A stretch of 33,073 bases of DNA from a virus (taxonomy: Duplodnaviria; Heunggongvirae; Uroviricota; Caudoviricetes), in IMG/VR virus record IMGVR_UViG_2879765931_000003, one strand, 5' to 3'. This document shows positions 1-26,028 of this stretch, piece by piece. Position 1 is the first letter of the stretch. Each line of letters begins with the position of its first letter. A program made the position numbers and the translations under genes. Under the pieces are notes generated by a model. It was not told the DNA's origin and did no database searches. It was given only the letters and a program-made list of their open reading frames with translations.

Positions 1-969
1 TTACACATCATTAGTACCTTCCTTATTTTTTGACTGGGACAAATTTGGGACCGATGGGTTCAGGATCGAGTCTATTTGCCGTGCGTGTTCGGTAAGGTGA
101 TTAGGTGCAAGGTGAGCATATCGACGAACCATTTCGATAGACTCCCAGCCTCCCATTTCCTGTAACACTGACAACGGGACTCCGGCTTGAACCAGCCAAC
201 TTGCCCAGGTGTGTCTCAAGTCGTGAAATCTGAAATCATCAATACCAGCCCGTCTCAGCGCCGCTTTCCAGGCTGTGTTTGCGTCATACCGCATCTTCCT
301 TACTGTTGGCGCTTTCGTTCCGTCTGGTTTGGTACAGCTTTCCTTGTACACAAATACCCAACGGTGATGATTCCCGATTTGTTTTTTCAATACGCGACAT
401 GCAGTATCATTCAGCGCAACGCCAATTGCGCGGTTTGATTTACTCTCTTCCGGGTTTATCCATGCCACCCGGCGCTGCATATCTATTTGTTGCCATTCAA
501 GGTTGATGATGTTCGAGCGTCTTAAGCCTGTTGCCAGTGCAAATTCAACAACAGACTTTAATGGCTCCGGACATTCATCAATCAGCCTTTGTGCTTCATG
601 GGGCTCCAGCCAGCGGATCCGTTTATTCTTTGGTTGAGGCACTTTAATAATTGGTGCCTTATCCAGCATTTTCCATTCACGCTCTGCGGCTCTTAGTAGG
701 GCCTTTATAAATGAAAGATGCGTAGCCTTCGTTGCAACGGACGCTGGTTTTGGCGTGTATTCTGGAACAGGTTTCCCTTTTTTTCTGCATGCTTCTGCCC
801 TGAGTTTCCAGTTTTCCTCATGACGCCGGTTCGTCATTTTCTGCATTGCTGAATAAATTTTTGATTCAGTGATGTCTCTTAGTTGCATCCCTGCGAAATG
901 TTGAAGCCAGAATCCGATCCGGCTTTTGTCATCGTCCAGTGATTTCTTATGTGCTTTCTCTTCGAGCCA
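1..969 (-). pseudogene. int: Phage tyrosine integrase, copy A: C-terminal ~320 codons, with the 5' part severed by IS600
   Basis: ORF ends ...[18 protein letters not shown]...[23 protein letters not shown]...TNDV* with stop at 1-3; the R..H..R..Y catalytic region is typical of tyrosine recombinases. Near-identical to the int at 11513-13942. Reading frame runs into the IS600 end at 970. Confidence 0.85.
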
Positions 970-1012
970 TGAGGTGTACTGGCAATAGCGGACACTACCA
1001 TTTGTTCTTTTT

Positions 1013-1831
1013 TTAAGCAGCCATCTGATGATATTTTTCCCTGAAGGCAGCCGGGGAGATATTCCCCAGACGAGAGTGACGACGCTGACGATTGTAGAAA
1101 ATCTCAATGTATTCCCGTATTACTGAGATGGCTTCATCCCGGTTATTAAAACGATAGTGGCTCAGGCTCTCATTTTTCAGCGTTCCCCAGAAGCTTTCCA
1201 TCGGAGCGTTGTCGTAACAGTTACCTTTACGCGACATTGATGTTTTCAGACCAAACTGCTCCTGTATGACCCGGTAATCGTATGCGCAGTACTGTGAACC
1301 TCGATCAGAGTGGTGGATTAGCCCGGCAGGTGGGCGCTGGCTCCTGAGCGCCATAAACAGGGCTTTACCTGTCAGCTCTTTTGTCATGCGCTCTCCCATG
1401 GCGTAGCCGACAATTTCGCACGTATAAACATCTTTGATACCAGCGAGGTACAACCATCCCTCCTGTGTGGCAACATACGTCAGGTCCGCCACCCAGACCT
1501 GATTTGGTGCTGTAGGAGCGAACGTCTGGTTCAGCAGATTTGGCGCAACAGGCAGATTGTGGTTCGGGTTCGTAGTCGCTCTGAACTTGCGTTTCTGCTT
1601 ACAGCGTAGCCTCAGCTCCTTACGAAGACGTGCCAGTCGGTCACGACCAACGATGATGCCATTCTCTGCCAGCTCCGTCTGGAGCCGCCGGGTTCCATAT
1701 GTTTCGCGAGTGCGGATATGTGCCACCTTAATCTCCAGTTTTAGCCGCTCATCACTTTGTTTTCTGTCTGAGGGTTCATGCTGTACCCAGTTGTAATAAC
1801 CGCTCCTGGATACACCAAATACCTGACACAT
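1013..1831 (-). CDS. IS600 OrfB (DDE transposase catalytic component)
   Basis: 272 aa, HSDRGSQY...[17 protein letters not shown] motif region; downstream of orfA in -1 frame. Confidence 0.88.
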
Positions 1832-1866
1832 CGCTTCAATGGGAAATTGTTGTCGCCATTGTTCGA

Positions 1867-2169
1867 TTAACGCGTATTTTTCAGCGACTCCTGTGCAAAA
1901 TACGCTGTTGCTTTTTTTAATATATCGCGCTCAAGGCGAGCTTCATTTAACGCCTTACGCAGTTGCAGAATTTCAGATTCCAGTTCAGCCACCGTGCGGG
2001 AACCAGGAGTACCGAGCCCTTTTCTGGCGGCGGTAACCCATTGTCCTAAAGTGCCTTCAGGAAGAGATAATCGGGAAGCGCCTTCACTGATCGAAAGTTG
2101 ATTTTCAAGAACCGTTCTGACAGCTTCGGCTTTGAACTCTTTAGAGTAACGTTGGGTTTTTCTGCTCAT
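1867..2169 (-). CDS. IS600 OrfA (transposase N-terminal HTH component)
   Basis: MSRKTQRYSKEFKAEAVRTV...LERDILKKATAYFAQESL, 100 aa, IS3-family OrfA pattern. Confidence 0.88.
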   Translation of the reverse strand: MSRKTQRYSKEFKAEAVRTVLENQLSISEGASRLSLPEGTLGQWVTAARKGLGTPGSRTVAELESEILQLRKALNEARLERDILKKATAYFAQESLKNTR

Positions 2170-2233
2170 TATTAGCTCCTTCTGATGCCATTCTATTTCA
2201 GGAAGGAGTGTCCGTTAAACTCAGGCTACCTCA

Positions 2234-2746
2234 CTTTGCAGCGTGGTGGAGGCATCCGGTGCCAGCCTGGAGAAGGGGCGGCACGATCAGTTGCTTACCG
2301 CACTTCGCGCGCTGCTGTTAAGCCGCAAGAATCCGTTTGGCGATATCAAATCGGATGGCACGGTGAAAACGGCTCTCGAAAACCTTGGTTTGGGAGAAGC
2401 AGCTAAAAGGAATGTAGGTACAGGGGCGAATCAGATACCTGATATGAGCCTGTTCGCGTCAAGTAATACCGCAACGGCTGCTGCGCAAAAATTTCCGTCT
2501 GGATTAATTTTACAGTGCGGTCAGTTGAATGGCTCCCCTAATGTATCTTCAACATACGGGATGAGGTTCCCGATGACATTCTCAAGAGTCCTTGCTGTCA
2601 CAGTTACATTGAACGTTACTGGCGCGTCAGGGCAGCCGACTGTATCGGCGACAAATGTCCAGAACACTGGATTTGATATTACAGTGTCGCCCGGTTCAGG
2701 ATATGGTTCATCTGCTGATGCGTATTACATTGCAATGGGATATTAA
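2234..2746 (+). pseudogene. Side tail fibre protein, C-terminal fragment (N-terminus removed by IS600)
   Basis: ...[29 protein letters not shown]...[12 protein letters not shown]...[18 protein letters not shown] is the conserved C-terminal region of lambdoid/T-even-like tail fibres; in-frame open from the IS600 boundary. Confidence 0.7.
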
Positions 2747-2750
2747 CGAA

Positions 2751-3158
2751 ATGTCATATTTTTATTCTGCATCGACAAACGGATTTTATTCGACTGAATT
2801 TCACGGCACCAATATTCCTGATGATGCAGTGGAAATCTCGGAATCAGAGTGGAAAACACTGATTAATTCGCAGAGTGTAACAAAAATGATTACCTGTGGT
2901 GAGAATGGTCACCCTGTCATTGTTGACCGTCCTTCTCCAACACCAGAACAATTAGCCTTAATAAATAATGAAAAGAAATCTGCACTGATAGCAGAGGCAA
3001 CGAATGTAATAGCGCCGCTTCAGGATGCGGTTGATTTAGATATGGCAACAGATGATGAAACGAAACTGTTACTGGCATGGAAAAAATATCGCGCACTATT
3101 GATGCGTGTTGATATAAAAAATACAGAGTGGCCGAAAAAACCAGAGAGCAATCTATAA
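2751..3158 (+). CDS. tfa: Tail fibre assembly protein (Tfa-like chaperone)
   Basis: Starts MSYFYSASTNGFYSTEF..., the typical Tfa N-terminus, immediately after the fibre gene stop; 135 aa. Confidence 0.65.
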   Translation: MSYFYSASTNGFYSTEFHGTNIPDDAVEISESEWKTLINSQSVTKMITCGENGHPVIVDRPSPTPEQLALINNEKKSALIAEATNVIAPLQDAVDLDMATDDETKLLLAWKKYRALLMRVDIKNTEWPKKPESNL

Positions 3159-3326
3159 GAGAAAATTCGTTATTGGATGAAAAGCGAGACATCTAATTAT
3201 AACAGCATATGGTTTTTCTAATGATAGCTCCTTCAACTTTATAGTATCTCATATACTCTAGAATATAGCTCTAAATGAGGGTTTGTTGTATACGGCAACC
3301 ACTCCATTTTTATTCCTGATAGGGAT

Positions 3327-3352
3327 ATAACCCGTCGAAAAAGACGGGTTAT
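3327..3352. terminator. Putative hairpin between convergent tfa and gtrC
   Basis: ataacccgtc-gaaaaa-gacgggttat inverted repeat in the convergent intergenic region; no strong T-tract. Confidence 0.3.
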
Positions 3353-3391
3353 TCATTCGTTAGTGTGGTTTATATGGTAGGGGGCAATTTA

Positions 3392-4913
3392 CTATAGGTT
3401 AAGTTTTTTGTTAAATACTAATATTACTCTTCCTTCAAAGTTCAAAACTTCGTCAGGCTTACCTAATTGTTCTTGAATACCTGCAAGGCAGGATGTCATT
3501 TCTTTACATCGTTCAGGTTCGTTAGCTATGGAAACTGCTATAAACTGTCGCTCAGGAGCAGAATTGAACGCCTCCTTGCTATGCCAAGAAGCCAGTGTCT
3601 GTTGTCTCACGCCAGTAAAGTTAATTTTCCCCGAATCAGCATTAAAGAAAACAGGAGTTATCTGTATGTCCCCACCAGATAACCAATTTACAGTCATTGA
3701 CAAATCCCAAAAAGAGCCGTACCCATAATGGAGATTATTTTTTTTTAAAAAATCAATGTATGATTTAACAATCTTCTCCTGATCGTGTAATGGTGAAGCA
3801 TTATTTGTGTAAGATTTAATTGAACTGATCGAAAATAAAAATGCGATTAGATAAAATAATATCTTTGCTTTTGTTGATGTACCGATACAGCACAATATCA
3901 GTGCGAAACAGGTAACATTCATAAAGAAACGCATGCTAATATAATCAGGGGATTTATAGCTCAGTATGAATGATGAGACAATACCTGCGATAGATAATAA
4001 TGAAAATAACACAATATAAATACGGTATGTGTTTTTTTTTATTGTCCGATAAAACAAACCACGCAGATGTAATAATGGCAATGAACCAAATGACAAATGA
4101 GGCGTAAGATGTTGCGTTATTGTCGACAACTAATAAATTAAGACTTTTTCCTATTAACAGAATGCACCATTTTGCATTTAAAATCATATCATTGAGTGAT
4201 ACAATTTCAAATTGGTGGGGAGGTATGTTAAGTAGATTTTGCAATACATTGGAAAGAGAGATTAAACATGCAAATAGTATTAATGCAGTATGCTTAAATA
4301 ATTTTTTATCCCATACAGAGAATAAAAAGTAAGATATTAATAGTGGAATAAGAAATGCAGCTGTAAACCACGGATCGGATACGCTGGAAAATAATGCTGT
4401 CAAACTTAAGAGGAGAGTGATAAATATATTTTTATACTGTATGTTGAAAACAGATATAAGCAAGCATAAAAAGCCGAAAGCGTTTGTTGAATTATGAGAA
4501 AAAGGATGTGATACAAAACCATAAGTGTATGAAAAATATGGTATTAGAGATAGAAGTATAATAGAAAATAAAGCAGGGGTAAACCCGAATGCCTTACGTA
4601 GCGTTAACATCGCTGCTATTACTATAGCAATAGAGAAAACTGCAGTTGATAATCTTAATGCTACTAAGCCATCATCACCTAACAGCATATAAAATAAAAA
4701 GTTAATTGGGTAAACGGTGAAATACCAATTATCCACGGTTGGTTTCCAGTCGTGGATTGATGATATACCATTCTCTAAAATATGCCTCCATACAATTGGG
4801 CTGTTAGCAACATCCGGTTCAACTGGAAAGTATCTGGTAGTCAACCAAGTTATTAGGAGTGCTGATAAAGCCAATAATATTTTTAATGCTGATTGTTTAA
4901 TACATATGCTCAT
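3392..4913 (-). pseudogene. GtrC-family type-specific O-antigen glucosyltransferase, read in two frames that overlap at a T9 (coding-strand A9) run at 4032-4040
   Basis: Polytopic membrane protein directly downstream of gtrA-gtrB in the usual gtrABC arrangement. ORF 3954-4913 (319 aa) and ORF 3392-4129 (245 aa) both cross the A9 run in different frames; a +/-1 change in the run would give one ~506-aa protein. Very AT-rich. Confidence 0.7.
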
Positions 4914-4915
4914 GG

Positions 4916-5836
4916 TTATTTTCTACCTTTCTTCAAAATATACTTAGGTCTTGATTTTGTTTCTAAGTAAATTCTACCTATATATTCACCGAGAACACCA
5001 ATCCCGATCAGTTGCACTCCACCCAAGAAAAGTATTGATACAAGCAGGGAGGGATACCCGCGTACTGGGTTACCAAAGACAAGGGTGTCTATAATCATCC
5101 ATGCACCATATAAAAATGAAATGCTTGCAACAAACAAGCCTATATAAGTCCATACGCGAAGAGGAAAGGTTGAAAAACTTGTGATACCTTCCAGTGCCAG
5201 ATTCCATAATTTCCAGCCATTAAATTTTGAGATGCCAGCAACACGCTCTGCGCGTACATATTCAACGACATCCGTCTGACCACCCACCCAGCTCAGTATG
5301 CCTTTCATGAAAAGATTGCGCTCAGGCAACAGTTTAATGTTCTCCACAACCTCACGAGACATGAGTCGAAAATCTCCGACATTTTCCTCGATCTTTGGGG
5401 TGCTTATTTTGTTGTGTAATTTATAGAACCACTCAGCTGTCTTACGTTTCAGTCGTCCATCAGTTGAGCGGTCTGAACGTTTAGCAAGCACCATCTCAGC
5501 ACCTGCCTGCCACTTTTCAATAAGATGAGGGATAACCTCAATTGGGTCTTGCAGGTCGACATCAATAGGAATTACAGCATCGCCGCTTGCATGGTCTAAC
5601 CCTGCAAATAAGGCTGGTTCTTTACCAAAGTTGCGTGTAAATGACAGCGGAACAACTAGCGGGTCTGAAACAGCCAGCGCGTTAATAATTGACTCTGTGG
5701 CATCTTTACTTCCGTCATTTATGAATACAATTTCTACTTCATATGGCTTCAACTCTTGGAATTCACGTACCGTTTTATAGAAAACAGGTATCGCTTCTTC
5801 TTCATTGAAGACAGGAACGACAAGAGATATTTTCAT
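4916..5836 (-). CDS. gtrB: Bactoprenol glucosyltransferase GtrB (GT2 family)
   Basis: 306 aa; [20 protein letters not shown]...DGSKD...D.D..D GT2 motifs and C-terminal TM segments; 2 bp upstream of gtrC. Confidence 0.92.
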
Positions 5837-6195
5837 TTCGCATCCCTAAAGACAATGAACTTTGAATAGACGAAACCGCACACCAGACTGATGGCGGAGA
5901 AGGTGATAAGAGTGACTATTGGAGGAAGTGAGCATTTATCAGCTGCCCAACCAACAATCACACTCAATATTCCCATAAATCCCACGTATAACATGTAGCG
6001 CATCGCTGTAGTCGATGCTTTGAATGTGAATCTTGCATTCGCGAAGAAGCTAAAGCTCACAGCCACTACGAAACCTGTGAAGTTTGCCAGAGCCTGACTG
6101 GTATGTGCGGTATAGATACATACACCAAAAACCACCCAGTGTATAAGTGTGTTCAGCACACCTATAGATGTGTACTTTACAAATAACTTTAACAT
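5833..6195 (-). CDS. gtrA: GtrA flippase-like small membrane protein
   Basis: 120 aa, [25 protein letters not shown]...[11 protein letters not shown]; overlaps the gtrB start by 4 nt. Confidence 0.92.
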
Positions 6196-6267
6196 TTATT
6201 TAATCAATGAGCTCTGAAAGGCATGAAGTCTATCATCCAAGTCTCAATTGATCGATACTTGCTATGT

Positions 6268-6320
6268 CTGATGAGACAAAACTGAGACACATAAGGCCTC
6301 ACAATGGCTTGCAAGGCTTT
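6268..6320 (-). promoter_or_regulatory. Conserved upstream block shared with the acyltransferase locus (candidate promoter/leader of the conversion cassette)
   Basis: Reverse complement AAAGCCTTGCAAGCCATTGTGAGGCCTTATGTGTCTCAGTTTTGTCTCATCAG matches 14168-14220 at 43 of 53 positions; both lie about 73-125 nt upstream of the start codon. Confidence 0.45.
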
Positions 6321-6396
6321 ACATGTTTTGATGTGGTGGGACGTGTGAGCGCAGTGTTGATGGGATAATCCTTTGAATTACAAGCGGATTCTTATA

Positions 6397-6442
6397 ATTC
6401 GTAATGCGAAGGTCGTAGGTTCGACTCCTATTATCGGCACCA
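6397..6442 (+). other. Phage attachment-site core: 46-nt 3' end of tRNA-Thr (thrW-type), not an intact tRNA
   Basis: ATTCGTAATGCGAAGGTCGTAGGTTCGACTCCTATTATCGGCACCA is the anticodon-loop-to-CCA portion of tRNA-Thr(CGU) as I recall it; the upstream sequence does not continue the tRNA. Confidence 0.8.
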
Positions 6443-6456
6443 TTTAAATCAATAAG

Positions 6457-6815
6457 TTACCTCGCATTTAAGTAAACTACGTTCTCCTCTTGTGCCGTAT
6501 TTGTGCCATTGCGACTTATAATCGCATCGATTTTGCTCGCGTGCTCGGTGAGATGCCCGGCTGAAAGGTGGGCGTATCTTTGAACCATTTCGAGAGTTTC
6601 CCATCCTCCCATCTCTTTAAGCGCAAGAAGAGAGACACCGGACTGAACCAGCCAGCTTGCCCAGGTATGCCTCAGGTCATGGAAGCGGAAGTTGCTAATG
6701 CCTGCCCGCTTTAACGCTCCCTTCCATGCCTTGTTGCTGTCGGTTCTCATCTTCCTTACCGCTGCTGTTTTTGTTCCGTCGCTTCGGTAGGCAGGTTTGG
6801 TGTGGACAAACACCC
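6457..6815 (-). pseudogene. int: Phage tyrosine integrase, C-terminal fragment (a third, divergent int), 5'-truncated by IS600
   Basis: ...[55 protein letters not shown]...; stop lies 14 nt from the att core, the same geometry as int copy B. Confidence 0.8.
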
Positions 6816-6858
6816 TGAGGTGTACTGGCAATAGCGGACACTACCATTTGTTCTTTTT

Positions 6859-7677
6859 TTAAGCAGCCATCTGATGATATTTTTCCCTGAAGGCAGCCGG
6901 GGAGATATTCCCCAGACGAGAGTGACGACGCTGACGATTGTAGAAAATCTCAATGTATTCCCGTATTACTGAGATGGCTTCATCCCGGTTATTAAAACGA
7001 TAGTGGCTCAGGCTCTCATTTTTCAGCGTTCCCCAGAAGCTTTCCATCGGAGCGTTGTCGTAACAGTTACCTTTACGCGACATTGATGTTTTCAGACCAA
7101 ACTGCTCCTGTATGACCCGGTAATCGTATGCGCAGTACTGTGAACCTCGATCAGAGTGGTGGATTAGCCCGGCAGGTGGGCGCTGGCTCCTGAGCGCCAT
7201 AAACAGGGCTTTACCTGTCAGCTCTTTTGTCATGCGCTCTCCCATGGCGTAGCCGACAATTTCGCACGTATAAACATCTTTGATGCCAGCGAGGTACAAC
7301 CATCCCTCCTGTGTGGCAACATACGTCAGGTCCGCCACCCAGACCTGATTTGGTGCTGTAGGAGCGAACGTCTGGTTCAGCAGATTTGGCGCAACTGGCA
7401 GATTGTGGTTCGGGTTCGTAGTCGCTCTGAACTTGCGTTTCTGCTTACAGCGTAGCCTCAGCTCCTTACGAAGACGTGCCAGTCGGTCACGACCAACGAT
7501 GATGCCATTCTCTGCCAGCTCCGTCTGGAGCCGCCGGGTTCCATATGTTTCGCGAGTGCGGATATGTGCCACCTTAATCTCCGGTTTTAGCCGCTCATCA
7601 CTTTGTTTTCTGTCTGAGGGTTCATGCTGTACCCAGTTGTAATAACCGCTCCTGGATACACCAAATACCTGACACAT
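6859..7677 (-). CDS. IS600 OrfB
   Basis: 272 aa DDE transposase. Confidence 0.88.
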   Translation of the reverse strand: MCQVFGVSRSGYYNWVQHEPSDRKQSDERLKPEIKVAHIRTRETYGTRRLQTELAENGIIVGRDRLARLRKELRLRCKQKRKFRATTNPNHNLPVAPNLLNQTFAPTAPNQVWVADLTYVATQEGWLYLAGIKDVYTCEIVGYAMGERMTKELTGKALFMALRSQRPPAGLIHHSDRGSQYCAYDYRVIQEQFGLKTSMSRKGNCYDNAPMESFWGTLKNESLSHYRFNNRDEAISVIREYIEIFYNRQRRHSRLGNISPAAFREKYHQMAA

Positions 7678-7712
7678 CGCTTCAATGGGAAATTGTTGTC
7701 GCCATTGTTCGA

Positions 7713-8015
7713 TTAACGCGTATTTTTCAGCGACTCCTGTGCAAAATACGCTGTTGCTTTTTTTAATATATCTCGCTCAAGGCGAGCTTCATTTAACGCC
7801 TTACGCAGTTGCAGAATTTCAGATTCCAGTTCAGCCAGCGTGCGGGAACCAGGAGTACCGAGCCCTTTTCTGGCGGCGGTAACCCATTGTCCTAAAGTGC
7901 CTTCAGGAAGAGATAATCGGGAAGCGCCTTCACTGATCGAAAGTTGATTTTCAAGAACCGTTCTGACAGCTTCGGCTTTGAACTCTTTAGAGTAACGTTG
8001 GGTTTTTCTGCTCAT
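7713..8015 (-). CDS. IS600 OrfA
   Basis: 100 aa, near-identical to the other copies. Confidence 0.88.
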   Translation of the reverse strand: MSRKTQRYSKEFKAEAVRTVLENQLSISEGASRLSLPEGTLGQWVTAARKGLGTPGSRTLAELESEILQLRKALNEARLERDILKKATAYFAQESLKNTR

Positions 8016-8177
8016 TATTAGCTCCTTCTGATGCCATTCTATTTCAGGAAGGAGTGTCCGTTAAACTCAGGCTACCTCAGACGTCCCGTATGATGGATAT
8101 GAAATCAAGACAATCACACATCCTGAACCGCCCCGGGAATCCTGGAGACTAAACTTCCTGAGAAAGAGGTAAACAGG

Positions 8178-8500
8178 ATGACTAAAAATACTCGTTTTTC
8201 CCCCGAAGTCCGTCAACGGGCAGTCCGTATGGTTCTGGAAAGTCAGGGCGAATATGACTCACAATGGGCGACAATTTGTTCCATTGCCCCAAAGATTGGC
8301 TGTACGCCGGAGACTCTGCGTGTCTGGGTTCGCCAGCATGAGCGGGATACCGGGGGCGGTGATGGAGGGCTCACCACCGCTGAACGTCAGCGTCTGAAAG
8401 AGCTGGAGCGTGAAAATCGTGAACTGCGCCGCAGTAACGATATCCTTCGCCAGGCTTCCGCTTATTTTGCGAAGGCGGAGTTCGACCGCCTCTGGAAAAA

Positions 8501-8504
<4 letters not shown>
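8178..8504 (+). CDS. IS629-like OrfA
   Basis: 108 aa HTH/leucine-zipper OrfA of the IS3 family. Confidence 0.82.
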
Positions 8505-9387
<883 letters not shown>

Positions 9388-9429
9388 GTTCACAGATAAA
9401 ACACTCTCCAGGAAACCCGGGGCGGTTCA

Positions 9430-9730
9430 GAAAGTAAATGAAACAGATGCTGAATACCTGGTGCGTAAATTCGATGAGCTTGAAGCTAAATGTGCAGCAC
9501 AGGAAAACAAAGTAATACCAGTGTCAACTGAACTGCCACCAGCAAATGAAAGTGTTTTGTTATTCGATGCTAACGGAGAAGGCTGGCTAATTGGCTGGCG
9601 TTCTCTCTGGTACACCTGGGGACAAAAAGAAACCGGAGAATGGCAGTGGACATTTCAGGTCGGGGACCTTGAAAACGTCAATATCACTCACTGGGCAGTA
9701 ATGCCAAAAGCACCGGAGGCTGGAGCATAA
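9430..9730 (+). pseudogene. Phage early-region protein, DUF551-like C-terminal fragment (5' end removed by IS629)
   Basis: ...LLFDANGEGWLIGWRSLWYTWGQKETGEWQW...ITHWAVMPKAPE has the Trp-rich pattern I associate with DUF551; no start codon after the IS boundary. Confidence 0.5.
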
Positions 9731-10035
9731 TGACCACTTTTACCGACAAAGAACTGATTAAAGAAATTAAAGAGCGTATCAGCAGCCTTGACGTGCGAGA
9801 CGATATTGAGCGCCGTGCTTATGAAATCGCACTCCTATCTCTGGAAGTAGAACCAGATGAACGCGAAGCTTATGAATTATTCATGGAAAAGCGTTTTGGT
9901 GACTTAGTAGATCGTCGGAGAGCAAAAAACGGCGATAACGAATACATGGCATGGGATATGACTCTCGGTTGGATCGTCTGGCAGCAACGAGCTGGTATCC
10001 ATTTCTCAACAATGTCACAGCAAGAGGTGAAATAA
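9730..10035 (+). CDS. Hypothetical phage early (ea-region) protein
   Basis: 101-aa ORF, start overlaps the upstream stop (TAATG), same direction as xis and int. Confidence 0.45.
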   Translation: MTTFTDKELIKEIKERISSLDVRDDIERRAYEIALLSLEVEPDEREAYELFMEKRFGDLVDRRRAKNGDNEYMAWDMTLGWIVWQQRAGIHFSTMSQQEVK

Positions 10036-10092
10036 TGGAGCCATACAGCCTCACACTCGATGAGGCCTGTCATTTTCTCAAGATTGAAGTGG

Positions 10093-11296
<1,204 letters not shown>

Positions 11297-12294
11297 CTCT
11301 GTTCAGGTGGCCAAATTCAGTGTGCCACTTCAGATATCCAGACCGACTGCCATTAACTGGATACGCACAGGGCGTCTTCAGGCAACACGCAAAGATCCCA
11401 CTAAGAATAAATCTCCTTACCTCACAACACGACAAGCCTGCATTGCGGCTCTTCAGTCTCCGCTGCATACTGTCCAGGTGAGCGCGGGTGATGGCATAAC
11501 AGAGGAAAGAAAATGTCACTCTTCCGCAGAGGTGAAATATGGTACGCCAGTTTCACATTGCCGAACGGTAAAAGATTTAAACAGTCTCTTGGAACAAAGG
11601 ACAAAAGGCAGGCGACAGAACTCCATGACAAGCTAAAGGCTGAAGCATGGCGGGTCAGCAAACTTGGTGAAATACCTGATATAACGTTCGAGGAAGCGTG
11701 TGTCAGGTGGCTTGAAGAGAAAGCACATAAAAAATCACTGGACGATGACAAAAGCCGGATCGGATTCTGGCTTCAACATTTCGCAGGAATACAACTAAGA
11801 GACATTACTGAATCAAAAATTTATTCAGCAATGCAGAAAATGACGAACCGGCGTCATGAGGAAAACTGGAAACTCAGGGCAGAATCATGCAGAAAAAAAG
11901 GGAAACCTGTTCCAGAATACACGCCAAAACCAGCGTCCGTTGCAACGAAGGCTACGCATCTTTCATTTATAAAGGCCCTACTAAGAGCCGCAGAGCGTGA
12001 ATGGAAAATGCTGGATAAGGCACCAATTATTAAAGTGCCTCAACCAAAGAATAAACGGATCCGCTGGCTGGAGCCCCATGAAGCACAAAGGCTGATTGAT
12101 GAATGTCCGGAGCCATTAAAGTCTGTTGTTGAATTTGCACTGGCAACAGGCTTAAGACGCTCGAACATCATCAACCTTGAATGGCAACAAATAGATATGC
12201 AGCGCCGGGTGGCATGGATAAACCCGGAAGTGAGGTAGCCTGAGTTTAACGGACACTCCTTCCTGAAATAGAATGGCATCAGAAGGAGCTAATA

Positions 12295-12597
12295 ATGAGC
12301 AGAAAAACCCGACGTTACTCTAAAGAGTTCAAAGCCGAAGCTGTCAGAACGGTTCTTGAAAATCAACTTTCGATCAGTGAAGACGCTTCCCGATTATTCC
12401 TTCCTGAAGGCACTTTAGGACAATGGGTTACCGCCGCCAGAAAAGGGCTCGGTACTCCTGGTTCCCGCACGGTGGCTGAACTGGAATCTGAAATTCTGCA
12501 ACTGCGTAAGGCGTTAAATGAAGCTCGCCTTGAGCGAGATATATTAAAAAAAGCAACAGCGTATTTTGCACAGGAGTCGCTGAAAAATACGCGTTAA
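12295..12597 (+). CDS. IS600 OrfA
   Basis: 100 aa. Confidence 0.88.
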   Translation: MSRKTRRYSKEFKAEAVRTVLENQLSISEDASRLFLPEGTLGQWVTAARKGLGTPGSRTVAELESEILQLRKALNEARLERDILKKATAYFAQESLKNTR

Positions 12598-12632
12598 TCG
12601 AACAATGGCGACAACAATTTCCCATTGAAGCG

Positions 12633-13451
12633 ATGTGTCAGGTATTTGGTGTATCCAGGAGCGGTTATTACAACTGGGTACAGCATGAACCCTCAGACAG
12701 AAAACAAAGTGATGAGCGGCTAACACTGGAGATTAAGGTGGCACATATCCGCACTCGCGAAACATATGGAACCCGGCGGCTCCAGACGGAGCTGGCAGAG
12801 AATGGCATCATCGTTGGTCGTGACCGACTGGCACGTCTTCGTAAGGAGCTAAGGCTACGCTGTAAGCAGAAACGCAAGTTCAGAGCGACTACGAACCCGA
12901 ACCACAATCTGCCAGTTGCGCCAAATCTGCTGAACCAGACGTTCGCTCCTACAGCACCAAATCAGGTCTGGGTGGCGGACCTGACGTATGTTGCCACACA
13001 GGAGGGATGGTTGTACCTCGCTGGCATCAAAGATGTTTATACGTGTGAAATTGTCGGCTACGCCATGGGAGAGCGCATGACAAAAGAGCTGACAGGTAAA
13101 GCCCTGTTTATGGCGCTCAGGAGCCAGCGCCCACCTGCCGGGCTAATCCACCACTCTGATCGAGGTTCACAGTACTGCGCATACGATTACCGGGTCATAC
13201 AGGAGCAGTTTGGTCTGAAAACATCAATGTCGCGTAAAGGTAACTGTTACGACAACGCTCCGATGGAAAGCTTCTGGGGAACGCTGAAAAATGAGAGCCT
13301 GAGCCACTATCGTTTTAATAACCGGGATGAAGCCATCTCAGTAATACGGGAATACATTGAGATTTTCTACAATCGTCAGCGTCGTCACTCTCGTCTGGGG
13401 AATATCTCCCCGGCAGCCTTCAGGGAAAAATATCATCAGATGGCTGCTTAA
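12633..13451 (+). CDS. IS600 OrfB
   Basis: 272 aa. Confidence 0.88.
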   Translation: MCQVFGVSRSGYYNWVQHEPSDRKQSDERLTLEIKVAHIRTRETYGTRRLQTELAENGIIVGRDRLARLRKELRLRCKQKRKFRATTNPNHNLPVAPNLLNQTFAPTAPNQVWVADLTYVATQEGWLYLAGIKDVYTCEIVGYAMGERMTKELTGKALFMALRSQRPPAGLIHHSDRGSQYCAYDYRVIQEQFGLKTSMSRKGNCYDNAPMESFWGTLKNESLSHYRFNNRDEAISVIREYIEIFYNRQRRHSRLGNISPAAFREKYHQMAA

Positions 13452-13956
13452 AAAAGAACAAATGGTAGTGTCCGCTATTGCCAGTACACCTCAAAGAGAG
13501 TAAATCAAACCGCGCAATTGGCGTTGCGCTGAATGATACTGCATGTCGCGTATTGAAAAAACAAATCGGAAATCATCACCGTTGGGTATTTGTGTACAAG
13601 GAAAGCTGTACCAAACCAGACGGAACGAAAGCGCCAACAGTAAGGAAGATGCGGTATGACGCAAACACAGCCTGGAAAGCGGCGCTGAGACGGGCTGGTA
13701 TTGATGATTTCAGATTTCACGACTTGAGACACACCTGGGCAAGTTGGCTGGTTCAAGCCGGAGTCCCGTTATCAGTGTTACAGGAAATGGGAGGCTGGGA
13801 GTCTATCGAAATGGTTCGTCGATATGCTCACCTCGCACCTAATCACCTTACCGAACACGCACGGCAAATAGACTTGATTCTGAACCCATCGGTCCCAAAT
13901 TTGTCCCAGTCAAGAAATAAGGAAGGTACTAATGATGTGTAACTTATTGATTTTAA

Positions 13957-14002
13957 TGGTGCCGATAATAGGAGTCGAACCTACGACCTTCGCATTACGA
14001 AT
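13957..14002 (-). other. Second phage attachment-site core: 46-nt tRNA-Thr 3' end in inverse orientation, not an intact tRNA
   Basis: TGGTGCCGATAATAGGAGTCGAACCTACGACCTTCGCATTACGAAT is the reverse complement of the core at 6397-6442; the 14-nt spacer to the int stop is nearly identical at both sites. Confidence 0.8.
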
Positions 14003-14167
14003 CTGTAGCACCAATCATAACTATCTGTTTTAGCAAGCATTAACCGCATTCACTAAGCTATAGTTGATGACACAAACAGAAAGTTGATGCATGATGTTGC
14101 CATATATATGTCACAAATACGGCACAACGATCTTCAAACATATAGCCACACATTCACAGAAGAGCAC

Positions 14168-14220
14168 AAAGCCTTGCAATCCAGTGCAAAGCTTGGTGTG
14201 TCTCCGTTTTGTTTCATCAG
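14168..14220 (+). promoter_or_regulatory. Conserved upstream block (paralogue of 6268-6320), candidate promoter/leader of the acyltransferase gene
   Basis: AAAGCCTTGCAATCCAGTGCAAAGCTTGGTGTGTCTCCGTTTTGTTTCATCAG, 71-123 nt upstream of the start codon. Confidence 0.45.
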
Positions 14221-14290
14221 TTACACATAACTATATGATCATTAACTAAAAGTCAGTATACTTGGAGAAATTTTAATTGCGTAATAGAGC

Positions 14291-15463
14291 ATGCATATGA
14301 TTGAAATTAACAGTTTATTATTAATAACATCCGTGATATTGATGTCGTTATTAGCTGTGGGGTTATTTGATAAAATTTCCCCAATAAATCTTGTTGAGCA
14401 CGGCAGGAATAATCAAATAGATGGAATGCGGGGGTTCTTAGCAATTTTCGTGCTTATTCATCACGCAGCAATTTGGAATGGATACTTGTCATCTGGAGTA
14501 TGGGAAGCACCTTCATCAAATCTGTTAGCAAATTTAGGCCAAGTTGGTGTGTCATTCTTTTTTATGATTACTGGTTATCTGTTCTTTTCAAAGATTATCT
14601 CTGGAGATCAGGACTGGACAAGGCTTTATGTATCAAGATTACTACGATTAACCCCAATGTTCATAGTTAGCCTATGTCTCATTTTTATCATTGTAGGTTT
14701 TAAGTCTGGATGGAGAATGCAGGTATCCACAGAAGAGCTTTTTGTGTCAATAATGAAGTGGTTGCCATTCACTGCGCTAGGTATGCCGAACATTAATGAC
14801 GTAAAAGATTCATTTACTATCAATGCCGCTGTAACATGGACACTTGTATATGAATGGTTCTTTTATTTTTCTCTTCCGGTAATTTCCGCGCTCATAAAAA
14901 GAAAAGTCAGTATTTACATGGTTATGATTAGCGCAATATCGCTATTTGTTTTCATTTTATTTTTCAGTAAAATACACATAGCATCATTTCTTTTTGGGCT
15001 CCTGGCATTTTTGCTAAATAAATCAAAGATAGTCAATGGAATTGCCAAAGCAAAAGTAACACCAATTATAATAACTGCGATAATGGTTTTTGAAATGACG
15101 TATTTCAAAACAACTTACGCACCGCTACCACTGATTCTTTGTGGAATAACATTTATCATTATCGCATCAGGTTGTGATTTGTATGGAATATTAAGATTAA
15201 ATATAACCAGAAAGCTAGGAGAAACTACCTACAGCGTTTACCTTCTGCATGGGATATTCCTTTATTGCCTAATGACGTGGATTATTCCTAATAATTACAC
15301 TGAAAATACATTTATCATACTGGTAAGCACAACTGCATTTCTTATTACGTTCACATCATGCCTAACTTTTAAATTAATAGAGACGCCATTCATCAAATTA
15401 ACAAAACAAACCACAACTTTAGTAAAAGAATTAATACCCACATTAACAAACAACAATCAATAA
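14291..15463 (+). CDS. Acyltransferase family 3 integral membrane protein; candidate O-antigen O-acetyltransferase (Oac-like) conversion gene
   Basis: 390 aa, multi-TM; N-terminal ...DGMRGFLAIFVLIHH... and ...SFFFMITGYLF... motifs of acyltransferase-3 enzymes; occupies the cargo slot between att/int and the tailspike; AT-rich. The exact start (14291 or 14297) is uncertain. Confidence 0.78.
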   Translation: MHMIEINSLLLITSVILMSLLAVGLFDKISPINLVEHGRNNQIDGMRGFLAIFVLIHHAAIWNGYLSSGVWEAPSSNLLANLGQVGVSFFFMITGYLFFSKIISGDQDWTRLYVSRLLRLTPMFIVSLCLIFIIVGFKSGWRMQVSTEELFVSIMKWLPFTALGMPNINDVKDSFTINAAVTWTLVYEWFFYFSLPVISALIKRKVSIYMVMISAISLFVFILFFSKIHIASFLFGLLAFLLNKSKIVNGIAKAKVTPIIITAIMVFEMTYFKTTYAPLPLILCGITFIIIASGCDLYGILRLNITRKLGETTYSVYLLHGIFLYCLMTWIIPNNYTENTFIILVSTTAFLITFTSCLTFKLIETPFIKLTKQTTTLVKELIPTLTNNNQ

Positions 15464-15476
15464 ACAATAAACATAA

Positions 15477-15508
15477 GCCGCCCTACATATATGTCCAAAT
15501 GGGGCGGC
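15477..15508. terminator. Putative bidirectional hairpin between convergent acyltransferase and tailspike fragment
   Basis: GCCGCCC-(17 nt)-GGGGCGGC followed by an AT-rich stretch. Confidence 0.3.
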
Positions 15509-15516
15509 GAATGTAT

Positions 15517-16224
15517 TTATATTAGTCTGGTAATGCTAAATGCAAACGAACTGGAGATTCCTGCCCCGCTAAGCGTATTGCGCAGGGTCACCCTAAATGT
15601 ATCTACGCCAATATAAGTAACATCACAACTAACTGAATCAGGCGCAGATATAGGTGTTATCTGCACAATATAACCGCTAGCAACTGCTGCGAGCGGATGA
15701 GAAAAGCTAACATCATACACACCTGTAGAAACCACGTTAACCGATGAAACACCAGTAGCAACGTCGATACTACCATTGGCGTTAATTTTTCCCGAGCGTG
15801 TGACTGACAATGCAGAAGCCGATGTTACCTTACTGGTTGTTTCTGTAAAAACACACCCAATGTCAACTACCTCGCAATTAGCTCCTGTTATCCAGTATGG
15901 TCGTTCTGCACTTGGCTGATAATCCCCTGCGCTCTGGAACGTTGTGCCGTTGAGTATGACTGTAACTTTTCCCCCACCTGAGCTTGTTACTTGAATATTC
16001 GTGTGCGTGTATCTTGCACTGCTCACGCGATGAAAATTTCCACCGTTTATAACCACAGTTACAGGGCGCGTCCCAGTATTATCTATAGCAAGGTCTGCCC
16101 CCCCGGCATTAGCCTCAAAGTATGGGTTGTTTAATACCAAAGCGCACGAACCGTTAAGGCCATTTATAGCTAATTGCGCACCACCTGTACTGGAATCCCC
16201 CTGAGTACCATTTCCTTCACAAGT
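15517..16224 (-). pseudogene. Tailspike / tail-fibre receptor-binding protein, C-terminal ~235-aa fragment (N-terminus removed by IS600)
   Basis: Reading frame open from the IS600 boundary to the stop at 15517; Gly/Ser/Thr/Asn-rich beta-strand-like repeats; position downstream of the ejection genes as for P22 gene 9. Confidence 0.5.
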
Positions 16225-16266
16225 TGAGGTGTACTGGCAATAGCGGACACTACCATTTGTTCTTTT

Positions 16267-17085
16267 TTAAGCAGCCATCTGATGATATTTTTCCCTGAAG
16301 GCAGCCGGGGAGATATTCCCCAGACGAGAGTGACGACGCTGACGATTGTAGAAAATCTCAATGTATTCCCGTATTACTGAGATGGCTTCATCCCGGTTAT
16401 TAAAACGATAGTGGCTCAGGCTCTCATTTTTCAGCGTTCCCCAGAAGCTTTCCATCGGAGCGTTGTCGTAACAGTTACCTTTACGCGACATTGATGTTTT
16501 CAGACCAAACTGCTCCTGTATGACCCGGTAATCGTATGCGCAGTACTGTGAACCTCGATCAGAGTGGTGGATTAGCCCGGCAGGTGGGCGCTGGCTCCTG
16601 AGCGCCATAAACAGGGCTTTACCTGTCAGCTCTTTTGTCATGCGCTCTCCCATGGCGTAGCCGACAATTTCGCACGTATAAACATCTTTGATGCCAGCGA
16701 GGTACAACCATCCCTCCTGTGTGGCAACATACGTCAGGTCCGCCACCCAGACCTGATTTGGTGCTGTAGGAGCGAACGTCTGGTTCAGCAGATTTGGCGC
16801 AACTGGCAGATTGTGGTTCGGGTTCGTAGTCGCTCTGAACTTGCGTTTCTGCTTACAGCGTAGCCTCAGCTCCTTACGAAGACGTGCCAGTCGGTCACGA
16901 CCAACGATGATGCCATTCTCTGCCAGCTCCGTCTGGAGCCGCCGGGTTCCATATGTTTCGCGAGTGCGGATATGTGCCACCTTAATCTCCGGTTTTAGCC
17001 GCTCATCACTTTGTTTTCTGTCTGAGGGTTCATGCTGTACCCAGTTGTAATAACCGCTCCTGGATACACCAAATACCTGACACAT
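16267..17085 (-). CDS. IS600 OrfB
   Basis: 272 aa. Confidence 0.88.
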   Translation of the reverse strand: MCQVFGVSRSGYYNWVQHEPSDRKQSDERLKPEIKVAHIRTRETYGTRRLQTELAENGIIVGRDRLARLRKELRLRCKQKRKFRATTNPNHNLPVAPNLLNQTFAPTAPNQVWVADLTYVATQEGWLYLAGIKDVYTCEIVGYAMGERMTKELTGKALFMALRSQRPPAGLIHHSDRGSQYCAYDYRVIQEQFGLKTSMSRKGNCYDNAPMESFWGTLKNESLSHYRFNNRDEAISVIREYIEIFYNRQRRHSRLGNISPAAFREKYHQMAA

Positions 17086-17448
17086 CGCTTCAATGGGAAA
17101 TTGTTGTCGCCATTGTTCGATTAACGCGTATTTTTCAGCGACTCCTGTGCAAAATACGCTGTTGCTTTTTTTAATATATCTCGCTCAAGGCGAGCTTCAT
17201 TTAACGCCTTACGCAGTTGCAGAATTTCAGATTCCAGTTCAGCCAGCGTGCGGGAACCAGGAGTACCGAGCCCTTTTCTGGCGGCGGTAACCCATTGTCC
17301 TAAAGTGCCTTCAGGAAGAGATAATCGGGAAGCGCCTTCACTGATCGAAAGTTGATTTTCAAGAACCGTTCTGACAGCTTCGGCTTTGAACTCTTTAGAG
17401 TAACGTTGAACCGCCCCGGGTTTCCTGGAGAGTGTTTTATCTGTGAAC

Positions 17449-18331
<883 letters not shown>

Positions 18332-18335
<4 letters not shown>

Positions 18336-18658
18336 TTTTTCCAGAGGCGGTCGAACTCCGCCTTCGCAAAATAAGCGGAAGCCTGGCGAAGGATATCGTT
18401 ACTGCGGCGCAGTTCACGATTTTCACGCTCCAGCTCTTTCAGACGCTGACGTTCAGCGGTGGTGAGCCCTCCATCACCGCCCCCGGTATCCCGCTCATGC
18501 TGGCGAACCCAGACACGCAGAGTCTCCGGCGTACAGCCAATCTTTGGGGCAATGGAACAAATTGTCGCCCATTGTGAGTCATATTCGCCCTGACTTTCCA
18601 GAACCATACGGACTGCCCGTTGACGGACTTCGGGGGAAAAACGAGTATTTTTAGTCAT
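18332..18658 (-). CDS. IS629-like OrfA
   Basis: 108 aa, identical to copy 1. Confidence 0.82.
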
Positions 18659-18783
18659 CCTGTTTACCTCTTTCTCAGGAAGTTTAGTCTCCAGGATTCC
18701 CGGGGCGGTTCACGTTGGGTTTTTCTGCTCATTATTAGCTCCTTCTGATGCCATTCTATTTCAGGAAGGAGTGTCCGTTAAAC

Positions 18784-20514
18784 TCAGGCTACCTCAACTC
18801 TCTTTTCAATAGGGTCAAGGTTTTTCATCCCGCCAAGATCTTCTGCCACCTGTTTGAGCATTGACCTTGTTGATGGCGCATCAATTTTTGCACCTGCAGG
18901 CATCGCCTTTTCAACATTGCGATAAAGCTGGTCGCTTCGTTTCATCAGCGCAGACATTCTTCCATTGACCGTATCAATAAACTTGTCGCTCATACCAAGA
19001 GCATCTTTTGCACCGGAAACGCGATCAATTATCTCACCCGCGCCCTGTGCTAGCTGCCTGATTGCTTCATTTTCCTGCACCTGTAGAGCAGAACCCGCAC
19101 GGGACTTGATTGCTTGCTCAACTGCCTTGTATTGCTCGTTCCCGGAAAAGTGTGAAGGGAGTAATGAATCAACATTAAGCCTTTCAGCAGACTCCAGAAC
19201 TTCAGCCTGAGGATTGATATCTAGTTCATCAAGCGATGAAGCGAGATTTGGCCTTTTTTGTGCTGCTACTGTGCGAACGACTTCCTCTGGGTTCTTCGTC
19301 GCAGGCGTCATTGGTACACCTTGTGCTACTCTTGCCTCTGCGGCATGAACCGCAGGATTTGTTGCTGCAGCGGCATCACCGGAGAATGGTGATGTTTCTG
19401 TTGGCGCAGTGGTCGCTCTCTGTGCAGATGTTTTATTGCCACTAATTATATTTGATGCACCACGAACACCACGGGTAACGCCATTTATCAGGCCATGCGT
19501 AGCAATGCTAAGTCCGGCATTAATAGCGGCATTTTCGGCAAAATCACCCCGTTGATTCGCCGCGTCAGCGAGAGAACCAATGACCATGTTTCCAGCTACA
19601 CCTGCTCCAGGAACAAGATAACCGCCTATTGACTCTCCAGCTTGCGCGTAGGGGTCTGTCGGTCTGTCTACTGGACGATAAACATCATCCAATACTTTTG
19701 GCCCCCCAAGCCCCTGACTGATTGCATTAATCAGACTTGCGCCACCCTGCAATACGTCAAATGGTATGTTTACCAGACCACGACCAGCCTGTTCTGCAAT
19801 TTGCCCTGCACTTTGACCACCAGTGAGCCAATCGCCAGCTTGTTGCATCAATGATGGTTCTTCCCGTGTTGGTGCATTATTGGCCTGATTAACTGTTTGT
19901 TGCTGAACAGGTTTCGGTGCGACAGAACTTACGGGTTGAGGTGGCTGCTGACTGGCTGCCTGCTGCTCAATCTGAGCAAATGGATTATTTGGGTCTGACT
20001 GCACACCTGATGCCGATACTTGTTCGGATGACTGTACTTCCAGTTGTGCAAACGGGTTGTTAGGGTCTTGCTGAGGATGTACCTTTGCAGAGGTGGCGCG
20101 CTGTTCGACTGTTGAGTCTGTCACCGGGTCACCAGCCCATTGAGCAAAGCGATCATCAACGTAACCGCGGCCTTCAGGTCCTGGCGTATATTCACCACGC
20201 TTTGCCTTCATAACGTTGCCGGGACCGTCGTGATAAGCCTGAAGAGCGTCACGCCAGTTACCAAACTGCTGGTACATCTTTGCCAGATAGCGCGCGCCAG
20301 CGTCAGCCTGATATTCGGGGTTTTGCATTTGCTCATCGGTATAACCCATATCACGCCATGTCCCAGGCATGACCTGAGTCAATCCTACAGCCCCGGCGGA
20401 GCTTACTGCGGCAGGGTTGTAAGAAGACTCCTTGGCACCCAGTGCAGTCATCAACCCTTCTGGCACACCGTAACGTGCGCCAGCCTGCTCTAACAAATCA
20501 CGGTAATTAGCCAT
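18784..20514 (-). CDS. Ejection (injection) protein at the P22 gp16 position, with an N-terminal lytic-transglycosylase (SLT)-like domain; C-terminus replaced by the IS600 end
   Basis: 576 aa; ...[28 protein letters not shown]...[11 protein letters not shown]... resembles SLT motifs; the last codons and the stop lie within the IS600 terminal repeat. Confidence 0.6.
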
Positions 20515-21846: not shown

Positions 21847-21855
21847 GATTACCCC

Positions 21856-22548: not shown

Positions 22549-22550
22549 GG

Positions 22551-23009
22551 CTATCTCCCGTGATTCAGGAAGTCGATTAGTTCTTCGCGTGTGGCGCTGT
22601 AAAAAGTCACGTCATCCACGCCTTTGAAGTATTTCTTGATGGTTCCTACACGCTTAAGGCCAATCATTGCGCAGTACATCTGACCGTGTCGGAATTTGCG
22701 TGCAGCGAACGATGTTACGCACTGAACGGTGGTGTTAGTCAGAATGTATCGCCAGAACGCCAGCCCAATTTCCTTGCTGAAGCCGCGAATCTCTGGCAGG
22801 TACATGGCGTGGCAATCTAATGTCAGCGGCTGAATCTCCTGATAGTAAACAATGCCGCCAAACTGACCGTGCACGTTCACCTCAAAGTAACGGCATTCAG
22901 GTTTGTAGTCGTATCCATCACCGTTGTTGCTCCCGGCGATAATGTCAGGGTGATTTCCGACTGCTTCTATCAGGTCGATGTTTCGCGTTGGTTTGAATGT
23001 AATCATCAC
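22551..23009 (-). CDS. P22 gp14-like protein (assigned by position)
   Basis: 152 aa between the needle and gp7-like genes; assignment by synteny only. Confidence 0.45.
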
Positions 23010-25772: not shown

Positions 25773-26028
25773 CTGCTGCCGCCTTAGGTTTTCGACCAGG
25801 CTTTTTACGCTGTTTTTCTTCTGGCTCTGGCTCTGCAACATCCTTCAAAAGGTCATCAGGATGTGAAAACCAGCCAGCATCCAGATATTCCTGAAGCTCT
25901 TCGGCTTTCACGATTTCAAAGTCGTAGCCAACGCCTTTCCACTTCTTCATGTCGCCATGACGAAAGATCATGTGTGTCATGCTTGTCTCCAGATAAAAAC
26001 GGGAGCCGAAGCTCCCTCTGGTTATCAC
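25750..26028 (-). CDS. Small hypothetical protein between coat and gp4-like genes
   Basis: 92-aa ORF with a charged C-terminal tail ([27 protein letters not shown]). Confidence 0.4.

Follow-up and report, generated by a model that had tools for sequence, protein, structure and literature searches.

A gtrI serotype-conversion block at the thrW locus of Shigella flexneri, very probably a remnant of prophage SfI

The locus studied here raises the question of which phage brought its O-antigen glucosylation genes, and whether the integrase fragments and the P22-like genes found nearby belong to the same element. The window, i.e., the whole stretch of DNA that was analysed (33,073 nt), is part of the S. 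flexneri chromosome CP026871.1, where thrW (tRNA-Thr CGU) lies 14-89 nt to its left, followed by proA and proB. A first-pass annotation had described positions 970-6195 as a second phage type, in which tail-fibre, tfa and gtr genes were associated with a different integrase partner and shared one att site with the conversion cassette of a P22-like phage. Our results indicate that the region very probably corresponds to a fixed, immobile remnant (~5.2 kb) of an SfI prophage at the thrW tRNA gene, a reading built on directly observed sequence identities, junctions, att cores and cross-genome conservation. SfI is a serotype-converting, contractile-tailed myovirus of S. flexneri with Mu-like baseplate genes (PMC3636060).

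The alignment of positions 2234-6460 with phage SfI (JX509734, 17069-21294) displayed 99.86% identity over 4227 columns (~4.2 kb), with 5 substitutions and 1 indel, a similarity far beyond chance. The SfI annotation of the aligned part comprises fibre, tfa, gtrI, gtrB, gtrA and the attP core, and all of these elements are present in the order that had been proposed, with the SfI-derived segment extending beyond position 6195 to 6460 and including the att core. The tail-fibre C-terminus (2234-2746, also given as 2243-2746; plus strand) corresponds to the last 170 of the 216 codons of SfI_0023, according to the SfI alignment and a Pfam Gp53-like_C match (E 4e-14), and the tail-fibre assembly gene tfa (SfI_0024; 2655-3158, plus strand) was recognized by Caudo_TAP (E 6e-27). 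The minus strand carries gtrI, encoding the type I-specific O-antigen glucosyltransferase (3392-4913), which was assigned through the SfI gtrI annotation and protein comparison and had no Pfam match; gtrB, the bactoprenol glucosyltransferase gene (4916-5836; Glycos_transf_2, E 4e-30); and gtrA, encoding a small membrane protein annotated as a flippase (5833-6195; GtrA_DPMS_TM, E 2e-14). The 46-bp att core (6397-6442, plus strand) is identical to the thrW 3' end and matches the SfI attP core exactly. Tfa, GtrB and GtrA each display one amino-acid difference with respect to their SfI counterparts, and the G+C content of gtrI is low (~32-36%). In a promoter and terminator scan of positions 2200-6900, promoter-like sites were no commoner than in shuffled sequences.

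The identity of the type-specific gtr gene was established by the phage genome comparison that had been suggested for it. SfI was the only phage aligning across 3392-4913, whereas SfV (U82619) matched the fibre/tfa and gtrA/gtrB/att parts only (96.5% identity, 54% coverage), SfII matched gtrB-gtrA-att only, and SfIV matched gtrB-gtrA only (91.9%); since these three phages match the flanks but not the gene itself, the type-specific gene is gtrI, and its operon with gtrB and gtrA lies beside the att core as in SfI-type prophages. The gene order fibre-tfa-gtr(type)-gtrB-gtrA-att, which had been ascribed to SfII, SfV and SfX, is exactly that of SfI and SfV; SfX is a short-tailed phage (PMC3636060), and in an SfX-like locus (L026) a tailspike lies beside the gtr genes. 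The gtrI cassette constitutes the type I O-antigen glucosylation operon, which by its published function (PMC3636060) would confer the type I antigen. According to the functions described in the literature, GtrB would load glucose onto undecaprenyl phosphate, GtrA would help it across the membrane, and GtrI would attach it to the O-antigen repeating unit through an alpha-1,4 linkage, which would yield the serotype 1 antigen. The acceptor of GtrI within the repeating unit is N-acetylglucosamine.

The gene is, however, not a single intact frame in this assembly. The homopolymer at 4032-4040, read on the coding strand, is A9 in CP026871.1 and A8 in SfI and in all nine other S. flexneri chromosomes compared, in which GtrI has 506 residues. 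The extra base causes a +1 frameshift after residue 293 and splits gtrI into two open reading frames: 3954-4913, encoding 293 native GtrI residues followed by 26 from the wrong frame, and 3392-4129, where the native C-terminal 215 residues are encoded. Because of this frameshift after codon 293, the cassette as written should not make type I antigen, a phenotypic effect predicted from the sequence. Either gtrI has truly been inactivated or the ninth A was introduced during assembly. A consensus error of long-read assembly, with gtrI intact in the strain and the cassette as a working type I determinant, appears moderately probable: the extra base sits in a nine-base homopolymer, the most error-prone context, and the frameshifted GtrI product is recorded in this assembly only, being private to CP026871.1, while the flanking GtrB occurs in 2730 blocks of the collection. 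Against this, no other private indel was found in ~18.5 kb of the assembly (compared with nine and five other genomes), a second nine-base run within gtrI is unchanged, and true slippage is also frequent in poly-A tracts. A true change from A8 to A9 is plausible, although somewhat short of an even chance; in that case the strain would descend from a serotype 1 lineage and have become type I-negative naturally, and in silico serotyping that scores the presence of gtrI would wrongly predict serotype 1 for it. More speculatively, type I glucosylation could be switched off and on by slippage in the poly-A tract.

How such a short piece of SfI came to remain at this locus can be approached from its borders. 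The exact 46-bp core is present at three sites, namely thrW, 6397-6442 and 13957-14002, and the same 46 bases are given in PMC3636060; integration at the thrW tRNA gene beside proA through this core agrees with that of SfI-type prophages. At the left border, intA (1-969, minus strand; stop codon at 1-3) comprises the 3' 969 nt of an Sf-type thrW integrase (Phage_integrase, E 2e-47), and represents the attL-side prophage end, its 5' end having been removed by IS600. Positions 970-2233, which had been taken as phage sequence, are instead a complete IS600 of 1264 bp (copy 1, minus strand; 99.4-99.6% identity to annotated IS600, with terminal motifs) that links intA to the middle of the fibre gene. 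Both ends of this copy are complete and its flanks, CCA and CTT, show no target-site duplication, so it marks a deletion or recombination rather than a simple insertion; on the SfI prophage map these flanks lie ~33 kb apart. At the right border, 6397-6442 is an attR-type junction, with the SfI P arm on the left and a resident integrase relic on the right. SfI positions 17069-22259 were kept and the remainder was replaced by IS600, and the locus lacks the complete inducible phage set (int, xis, early, head and contractile-tail genes). Moreover, window positions 1-6860 are colinear with the nine other complete S. flexneri chromosomes (99.88-99.93% identity), which display the same int'-IS600-fibre'-tfa-gtrI-gtrB-gtrA layout, the A8/A9 run being the sole indel. 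The proposed second phage type is an immobile 5.2-kb remnant rather than a second phage, and its gtrI is frameshifted as assembled.

These borders suggest a scenario in which SfI would have integrated site-specifically at the 46-bp thrW core, so that int came to lie beside thrW (attL) and gtrA at the opposite end (attR), where the prophage would have met a pre-existing relic, intC'-IS600-IS629-like, located downstream of thrW in the species. Subsequently, ~33.2 kb may have been lost, either through a deletion mediated by IS600 or through recombination of one IS600 copy with another. This loss would have comprised the int 5' end, xis and the early, head and tail genes in their entirety, leaving int'-IS600-'fibre-tfa-gtrI-gtrB-gtrA-att, i.e., ~5.2 kb of SfI. 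We infer this order of events, as well as the deletion mechanism, the latter from the junction itself.

The integrase ends bear on which phage was involved. The truncated intA at the thrW end is likely the cognate integrase of the gtrI block. It is 98.9% identical to the SfI int (SfI-019), compared with 99.86% for the cargo block, and closer to those of SfIV (99.5%) and SfII (99.3%), a point against the reading of the region as an SfI remnant, since this end could have been contributed by a mosaic variant of SfI or by another Sf-type prophage. The different integrase partner that had been proposed is a separate matter. It corresponds to intC' (6457-6815, minus strand), a 359-nt 3' fragment of an mEpX2/HK75-like thrW integrase (99.3% identity to mEpX2 int, 72% to SfI int) truncated by IS600 copy 2 (6816-8079, minus strand). 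The gtrA-core-int' order at 5833-6815 resembles an attP arrangement with an integrase unlike that of SfI, and a full-length mEpX2/HK75-like integrase lies beside a gtrV cassette in CP026799; one might therefore picture a hybrid phage in which an SfI-type tail and gtrI were functionally paired with this integrase across attP. Such a hybrid is very unlikely, given that intC' is only a short fragment cut by IS600, that it is found downstream of thrW in strains of many serotypes, whether their cassette is gtrI, gtrII, gtrIV or gtrX-like (four other gtr types in all, with 2457T among the examples), that it is also found there in strains lacking any prophage at this site, and that in CP026799 and CP026803 it lies directly beside an intact thrW. 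Further, SfI identity stops at 6460 and mEpX2-like identity begins at 6397, a switch at the core that is expected for integration beside a resident relic, and tandem arrangements at thrW are documented (PMC3306764). Thus, intC' is a resident relic of the thrW flank in S. flexneri and not a part of SfI; likewise, IS600, IS629 and a putative int are among the conserved host genes of the proA-yaiC region in the SfI/SfX work (PMC3306764).

The second cassette of the window belongs to an Sf101-like remnant, and more than 12 kb, with two att cores and several IS elements, separate the P22-like module from the gtrI block. The integrase beside this cassette, intB (11513-13942, plus strand), is a full-length Sf-type integrase, inverted relative to intA, of the same family (98.7% identity) and interrupted by IS600 copy 3 (12231-13493, with a 3-bp duplication, AAG). 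An exact but inverted copy of the 46-bp core (13957-14002, minus strand) separates intB from oacB (14291-15463, plus strand), which lies 288 nt from this thrW-type core. The latter gene encodes an O-acetyltransferase (PMC4159516) and is a second serotype-modifying cassette, its product being identical to Sf101 OacB at 388 of 390 residues and carrying Acyl_transf_3 in the source annotation. Next to it are a P22-type tailspike C-terminal fragment (15517-16140, minus strand), which is truncated by IS600 copy 4 and shares 76.6% of its amino acids with residues 346-580 of the Sf101 tailspike; an IS600 with a nested IS629-like element (16225-18796, delimited by IS ends); and a P22/Sf101-like late module spanning gp16' through portal' (18797-30231, minus strand), with P22 Pfam families in the source annotation and 96.7% identity to APC_JM3.2 and 95.9% to Sf101. 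Across the IS600/IS629-like interval the module is colinear with the tailspike fragment and oacB, so that oacB adjoins P22-type tailspike and late genes as in Sf101. Two further candidates were discarded: positions 9430-33073 as one inverted block with the missing intC 5' part at its far end, as the right flank consists of IS2, type VI secretion genes and a dnaQ-like gene; and the open reading frames at 31845-33073 as terminase, as these are IS2.

P22-like phages can carry gtr operons beside attP, and the SfX-like locus L026 is an example; besides, the same prophage-rich region holds the gtrI block and the P22-like module, each of them next to an identical att core. A common origin of the fibre, tfa and gtr genes and the late module in a single P22-like element is nonetheless next to impossible, and the alignment already refutes it: the 4.2-kb block, fibre and tfa included, is one continuous piece of SfI sequence, and instead of a tailspike and late-module colinearity it carries Gp53-like_C and Caudo_TAP genes, near which SfI has annotated MuP-like and baseplate-J-like tail proteins. 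For its part, the P22-like module comes with a separate tailspike fragment and with oacB as its cargo, in colinearity with Sf101. The morphotype difference put forward in the first-pass annotation is borne out, since the block derives from contiguous DNA of a contractile-tailed myovirus. The claim of two cassettes from two morphotypes at one att site stands as to the identical 46-bp cores that adjoin both, though the second cassette is oacB rather than a gtr operon; two morphotypes sharing one att site is in any case already published for the SfI and SfX tandem at thrW.

Regarding the arrival of oacB in the proA-adrA region, the gtrA-side and oacB-side att arms have in common, beyond the core, only 18 nt towards the integrase and a single 53-nt patch (81%), which means that they differ on the cargo side. 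The position of oacB by a thrW-type core, on a P22/Sf101-like arm, speaks for site-specific integration at thrW by a short-tailed phage rather than for an IS-driven transposition from sbcB. For the gtrI block, the main value of these analyses is a correct annotation, as the S. flexneri serotype 1 determinant locked in the chromosome by IS600, from which the neighbouring intC' should be kept apart.

Among known systems, phage SfI (JX509734 / NC_027339) is similar in gene order, 46-bp core and thrW site, but only 5.2 of its 38.4 kb are kept here, IS600 has cut its int short, a +1 frameshift interrupts gtrI, and what follows the core is not SfI int but the relic of another integrase. A cryptic SfI prophage with gtrI at the proA/thrW locus was reported for serotype 1 strains (Y53; Adhikari et al. 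1999, as described in PMC3636060 and PMC4924310), and in the description of these citing papers it likewise places the gtrI cluster in a defective prophage beside proA. The SfI remnant at thrW is accordingly already known, and ordinary apart from the one-base gtrI frameshift in this assembly. SfV shares the same architecture, with the 96.5% identity confined to fibre/tfa and gtrA/gtrB/att, but its type-specific gene is gtrV, with no similarity across gtrI. Sf101 (KJ832078), an oacB-carrying P22/Sf6-like podovirus, resembles the second cassette in OacB, the tailspike end and the colinear late genes; unlike here, where oacB adjoins a thrW-type core and an Sf-type integrase instead of a 13-bp attP and an HK544-like integrase, it integrates in sbcB through its 13-bp attP (PMC4159516). 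Finally, strain 036_1d is a tandem SfI and SfX lysogen at thrW with the core between both prophages (PMC3306764), and as in the window, the thrW att site is used jointly by a contractile-tailed and a short-tailed phage that each bring a cassette for O-antigen modification. In our case, oacB takes the place of gtrX in the short-tailed partner, decay has affected both prophages, and the oacB and gtrI blocks stand in opposite orientations.

Open reading frame listing and Pfam scans bore out the gene list of the first-pass annotation for 970-6195, which had been read there as fibre, tfa and gtr genes of a second phage type: a tail-fibre C-terminus (2243-2746, plus strand; Gp53-like_C), a tail-fibre assembly gene, tfa (2655-3158, plus; Caudo_TAP), a type-specific membrane-protein gene with no Pfam family found (3392-4913, minus) and a low G+C content (32-36%, flanks about 50%), gtrB, encoding a GT2 enzyme (4916-5836, minus), and gtrA (5833-6195, minus). 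In a megablast search of 2237-6854 against phage records, phage SfI was the sole full-length match (99.9% over query positions 1-4224); SfV matched partially, in the fibre/tfa and gtrA/gtrB/att parts (96.5%, 54% coverage), SfII only in gtrB-gtrA-att (99.5%), and SfIV in gtrB-gtrA (91.9%). Aligned directly, 2234-6460 corresponds to SfI 17069-21294; the 4227 columns contain five substitutions and a single indel. Across this segment the SfI record lists SfI_0023 (fibre), SfI_0024 (tfa-like), gtrI, gtrB, gtrA and the 46-bp attP core, with int and xis next in order, and the type-specific gene is therefore gtrI. SfI is a contractile-tailed phage whose integration site is thrW, beside proA (PMC3636060); the block thus derives, as had been proposed, from a morphotype other than that of the P22-like late genes that lie farther to the right.

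The left third of the interval is not phage sequence, as first annotated, but a complete IS600 of 1264 bp (copy 1, 970-2233; both terminal motifs, 99.4-99.6% to annotated IS600 copies). It abuts position 969 of the integrase gene intA (1-969, minus, stop at 1-3) on the left and the mid-part of SfI's fibre gene on the right. No 3-bp target duplication surrounds this copy (flanks CCA versus CTT); copy 3 of IS600, which lies within intB, the second integrase gene, has one (AAG). The two flanks of copy 1 map to SfI 22259 and 17069, and of the prophage's 38.4 kb, therefore, about 33.2 kb are gone and 5.2 kb are left; the interior was probably lost by IS600-mediated deletion or by recombination between two IS600 copies. 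Gene intA shares 98.9% identity with SfI int, 99.5% with that of SfIV and 99.3% with that of SfII; it codes for a thrW integrase of the Sf type and is probably the SfI prophage's cognate end, which its allele does not prove.

The frameshifted gtrI product is recorded in a single assembly, CP026871.1 (GCA_002950195.1), whose record matches window 1-6860 base for base. There, thrW, a tRNA-Thr(CGU) gene, occupies the stretch 14-89 nt to the left of position 1, and proA and proB come after it. Exact copies of the 46-bp SfI core are present at the thrW 3' end, at 6397-6442 adjoining gtrA, and, inverted, at 13957-14002. The order thrW/core-int'-IS600-'fibre-tfa-gtrI-gtrB-gtrA-core is the one expected of a thrW-integrated SfI prophage minus its interior. 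The window's GtrB is found in 2730 blocks of the collection, and proA-int'-IS600-tfa-gtrI-gtrB-gtrA recurs with equal spacing in all ten of the complete chromosomes among the matches listed; positions 1-6860 align end to end with nine of these ten, at 99.88-99.93% and with one indel. The SfI remnant is a fixed feature of the lineage.

That indel is one additional A in a coding-strand poly-A run of gtrI, A9 at 4032-4040 here and A8 in SfI and in 9/9 other genomes. In this assembly the reading frame shifts beyond residue 293 of the 506, the upstream ORF stops 26 codons on, and the last 215 GtrI residues are encoded in a different frame. The ninth A could be an assembly error, as the run is a long homopolymer and the allele a singleton; it could also be a real change, in favour of which no other private indel is present in about 18.5 kb of the assembly relative to the other genomes, and a second 9-base run within gtrI is unaltered.

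The "different integrase partner" assigned earlier to the block is a 97-residue fragment (6457-6815) directly after the gtrA-side core, 72% identical to SfI int and 99.3% to the mEpX2/HK75-type thrW phage integrase; the mEpX2/HK75-like identity starts at the core and that to SfI stops at 6460. Looked up in public assemblies (loci L025-L031), the fragment adjoins gtrI, gtrII (including strain 2457T, AE014073) and gtrIV, stands beside a tailspike-bearing gtrX-like cassette, and directly follows intact thrW, without cassette, in CP026799 and CP026803. [quoted passage not shown] This recurrence, together with the map, contradicts the earlier assignment: 6457-6815 is a resident relic beside which each thrW phage inserts. 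The fragment is a conserved thrW flank across S. flexneri, and CP026799 also carries a full-length integrase of the same type beside a gtrV cassette.

Gene intB (11513-13942), which an IS600 divides, shares 98.7% identity with intA. Small plus-strand ORFs and an xis-like region (9353-10035 and 11307-11512) run in the direction of intB and look like the remnant of a third Sf-type prophage's leftward early operon, so that at least three thrW-type integrases lie within 14 kb. Two copies of IS911 (99.9% to the annotated element), inverted to each other, interrupt the xis region upstream of intB (10085-11331; absent from genome UGYU01000001) and the portal gene (30232-31480), and form a possible substrate for inversion. 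A 1327-bp IS629-like element is also present in two inverted copies (8103-9429 and 17407-18733, the latter within IS600 copy 4), both with the transposase split into ORFs of 118 and 222 residues. The right-end ORFs (31845-33073), considered as terminase, proved to be IS2; five other genomes retain fragments of a terminase and of the portal N-terminus, as well as lysis genes, deleted here. Past the window's right end (locus L007) lie genes for type VI secretion and one that is dnaQ-like. The gp20-like injection protein (20515-21846) has 443 residues, whereas five further S. flexneri genomes have it called at 365; no indel was found, so a substitution probably creates a stop in the others.

Two conversion cassettes are present, as first annotated, the second being oacB (14291-15463) rather than gtr. 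Two residues separate its product from Sf101 OacB, which fits the two substitutions remarked on for Sf101 OacB (PMC4159516). After oacB come the C-terminal part of a tailspike (76.6% to Sf101), IS600 with the nested IS629-like element (16225-18796) and a P22/Sf101-like late module, an arrangement colinear with Sf101 save for about 2.5 kb replaced by the IS. Sf101 has its integration site at sbcB (PMC4159516), whereas the oacB found here has an exact thrW core and an Sf-type integrase at a distance of 288 nt; the claim that cassettes of two morphotypes share one att site therefore holds. The oacB unit (12231-18796) is bounded by inverted IS600 copies, in the order IS600 in intB, intB 3' end, att core, oacB, tailspike fragment and IS600 with the nested element, matching a "transposon-like structure" described in the literature. 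In this window the unit can be seen to form the right arm of a P22/Sf101-like prophage next to a thrW-type core, which suggests that oacB arrived by integration at thrW rather than by IS mobilisation from sbcB.

Taken together, the observation is confirmed and its interpretation is largely right, save for the integrase and the type of the second cassette. All parts map onto known elements, so the SfI remnant is already known; two morphotypes at one att site are likewise documented biology, as contractile-tailed SfI and short-tailed SfX integrate in tandem at thrW (PMC3306764).
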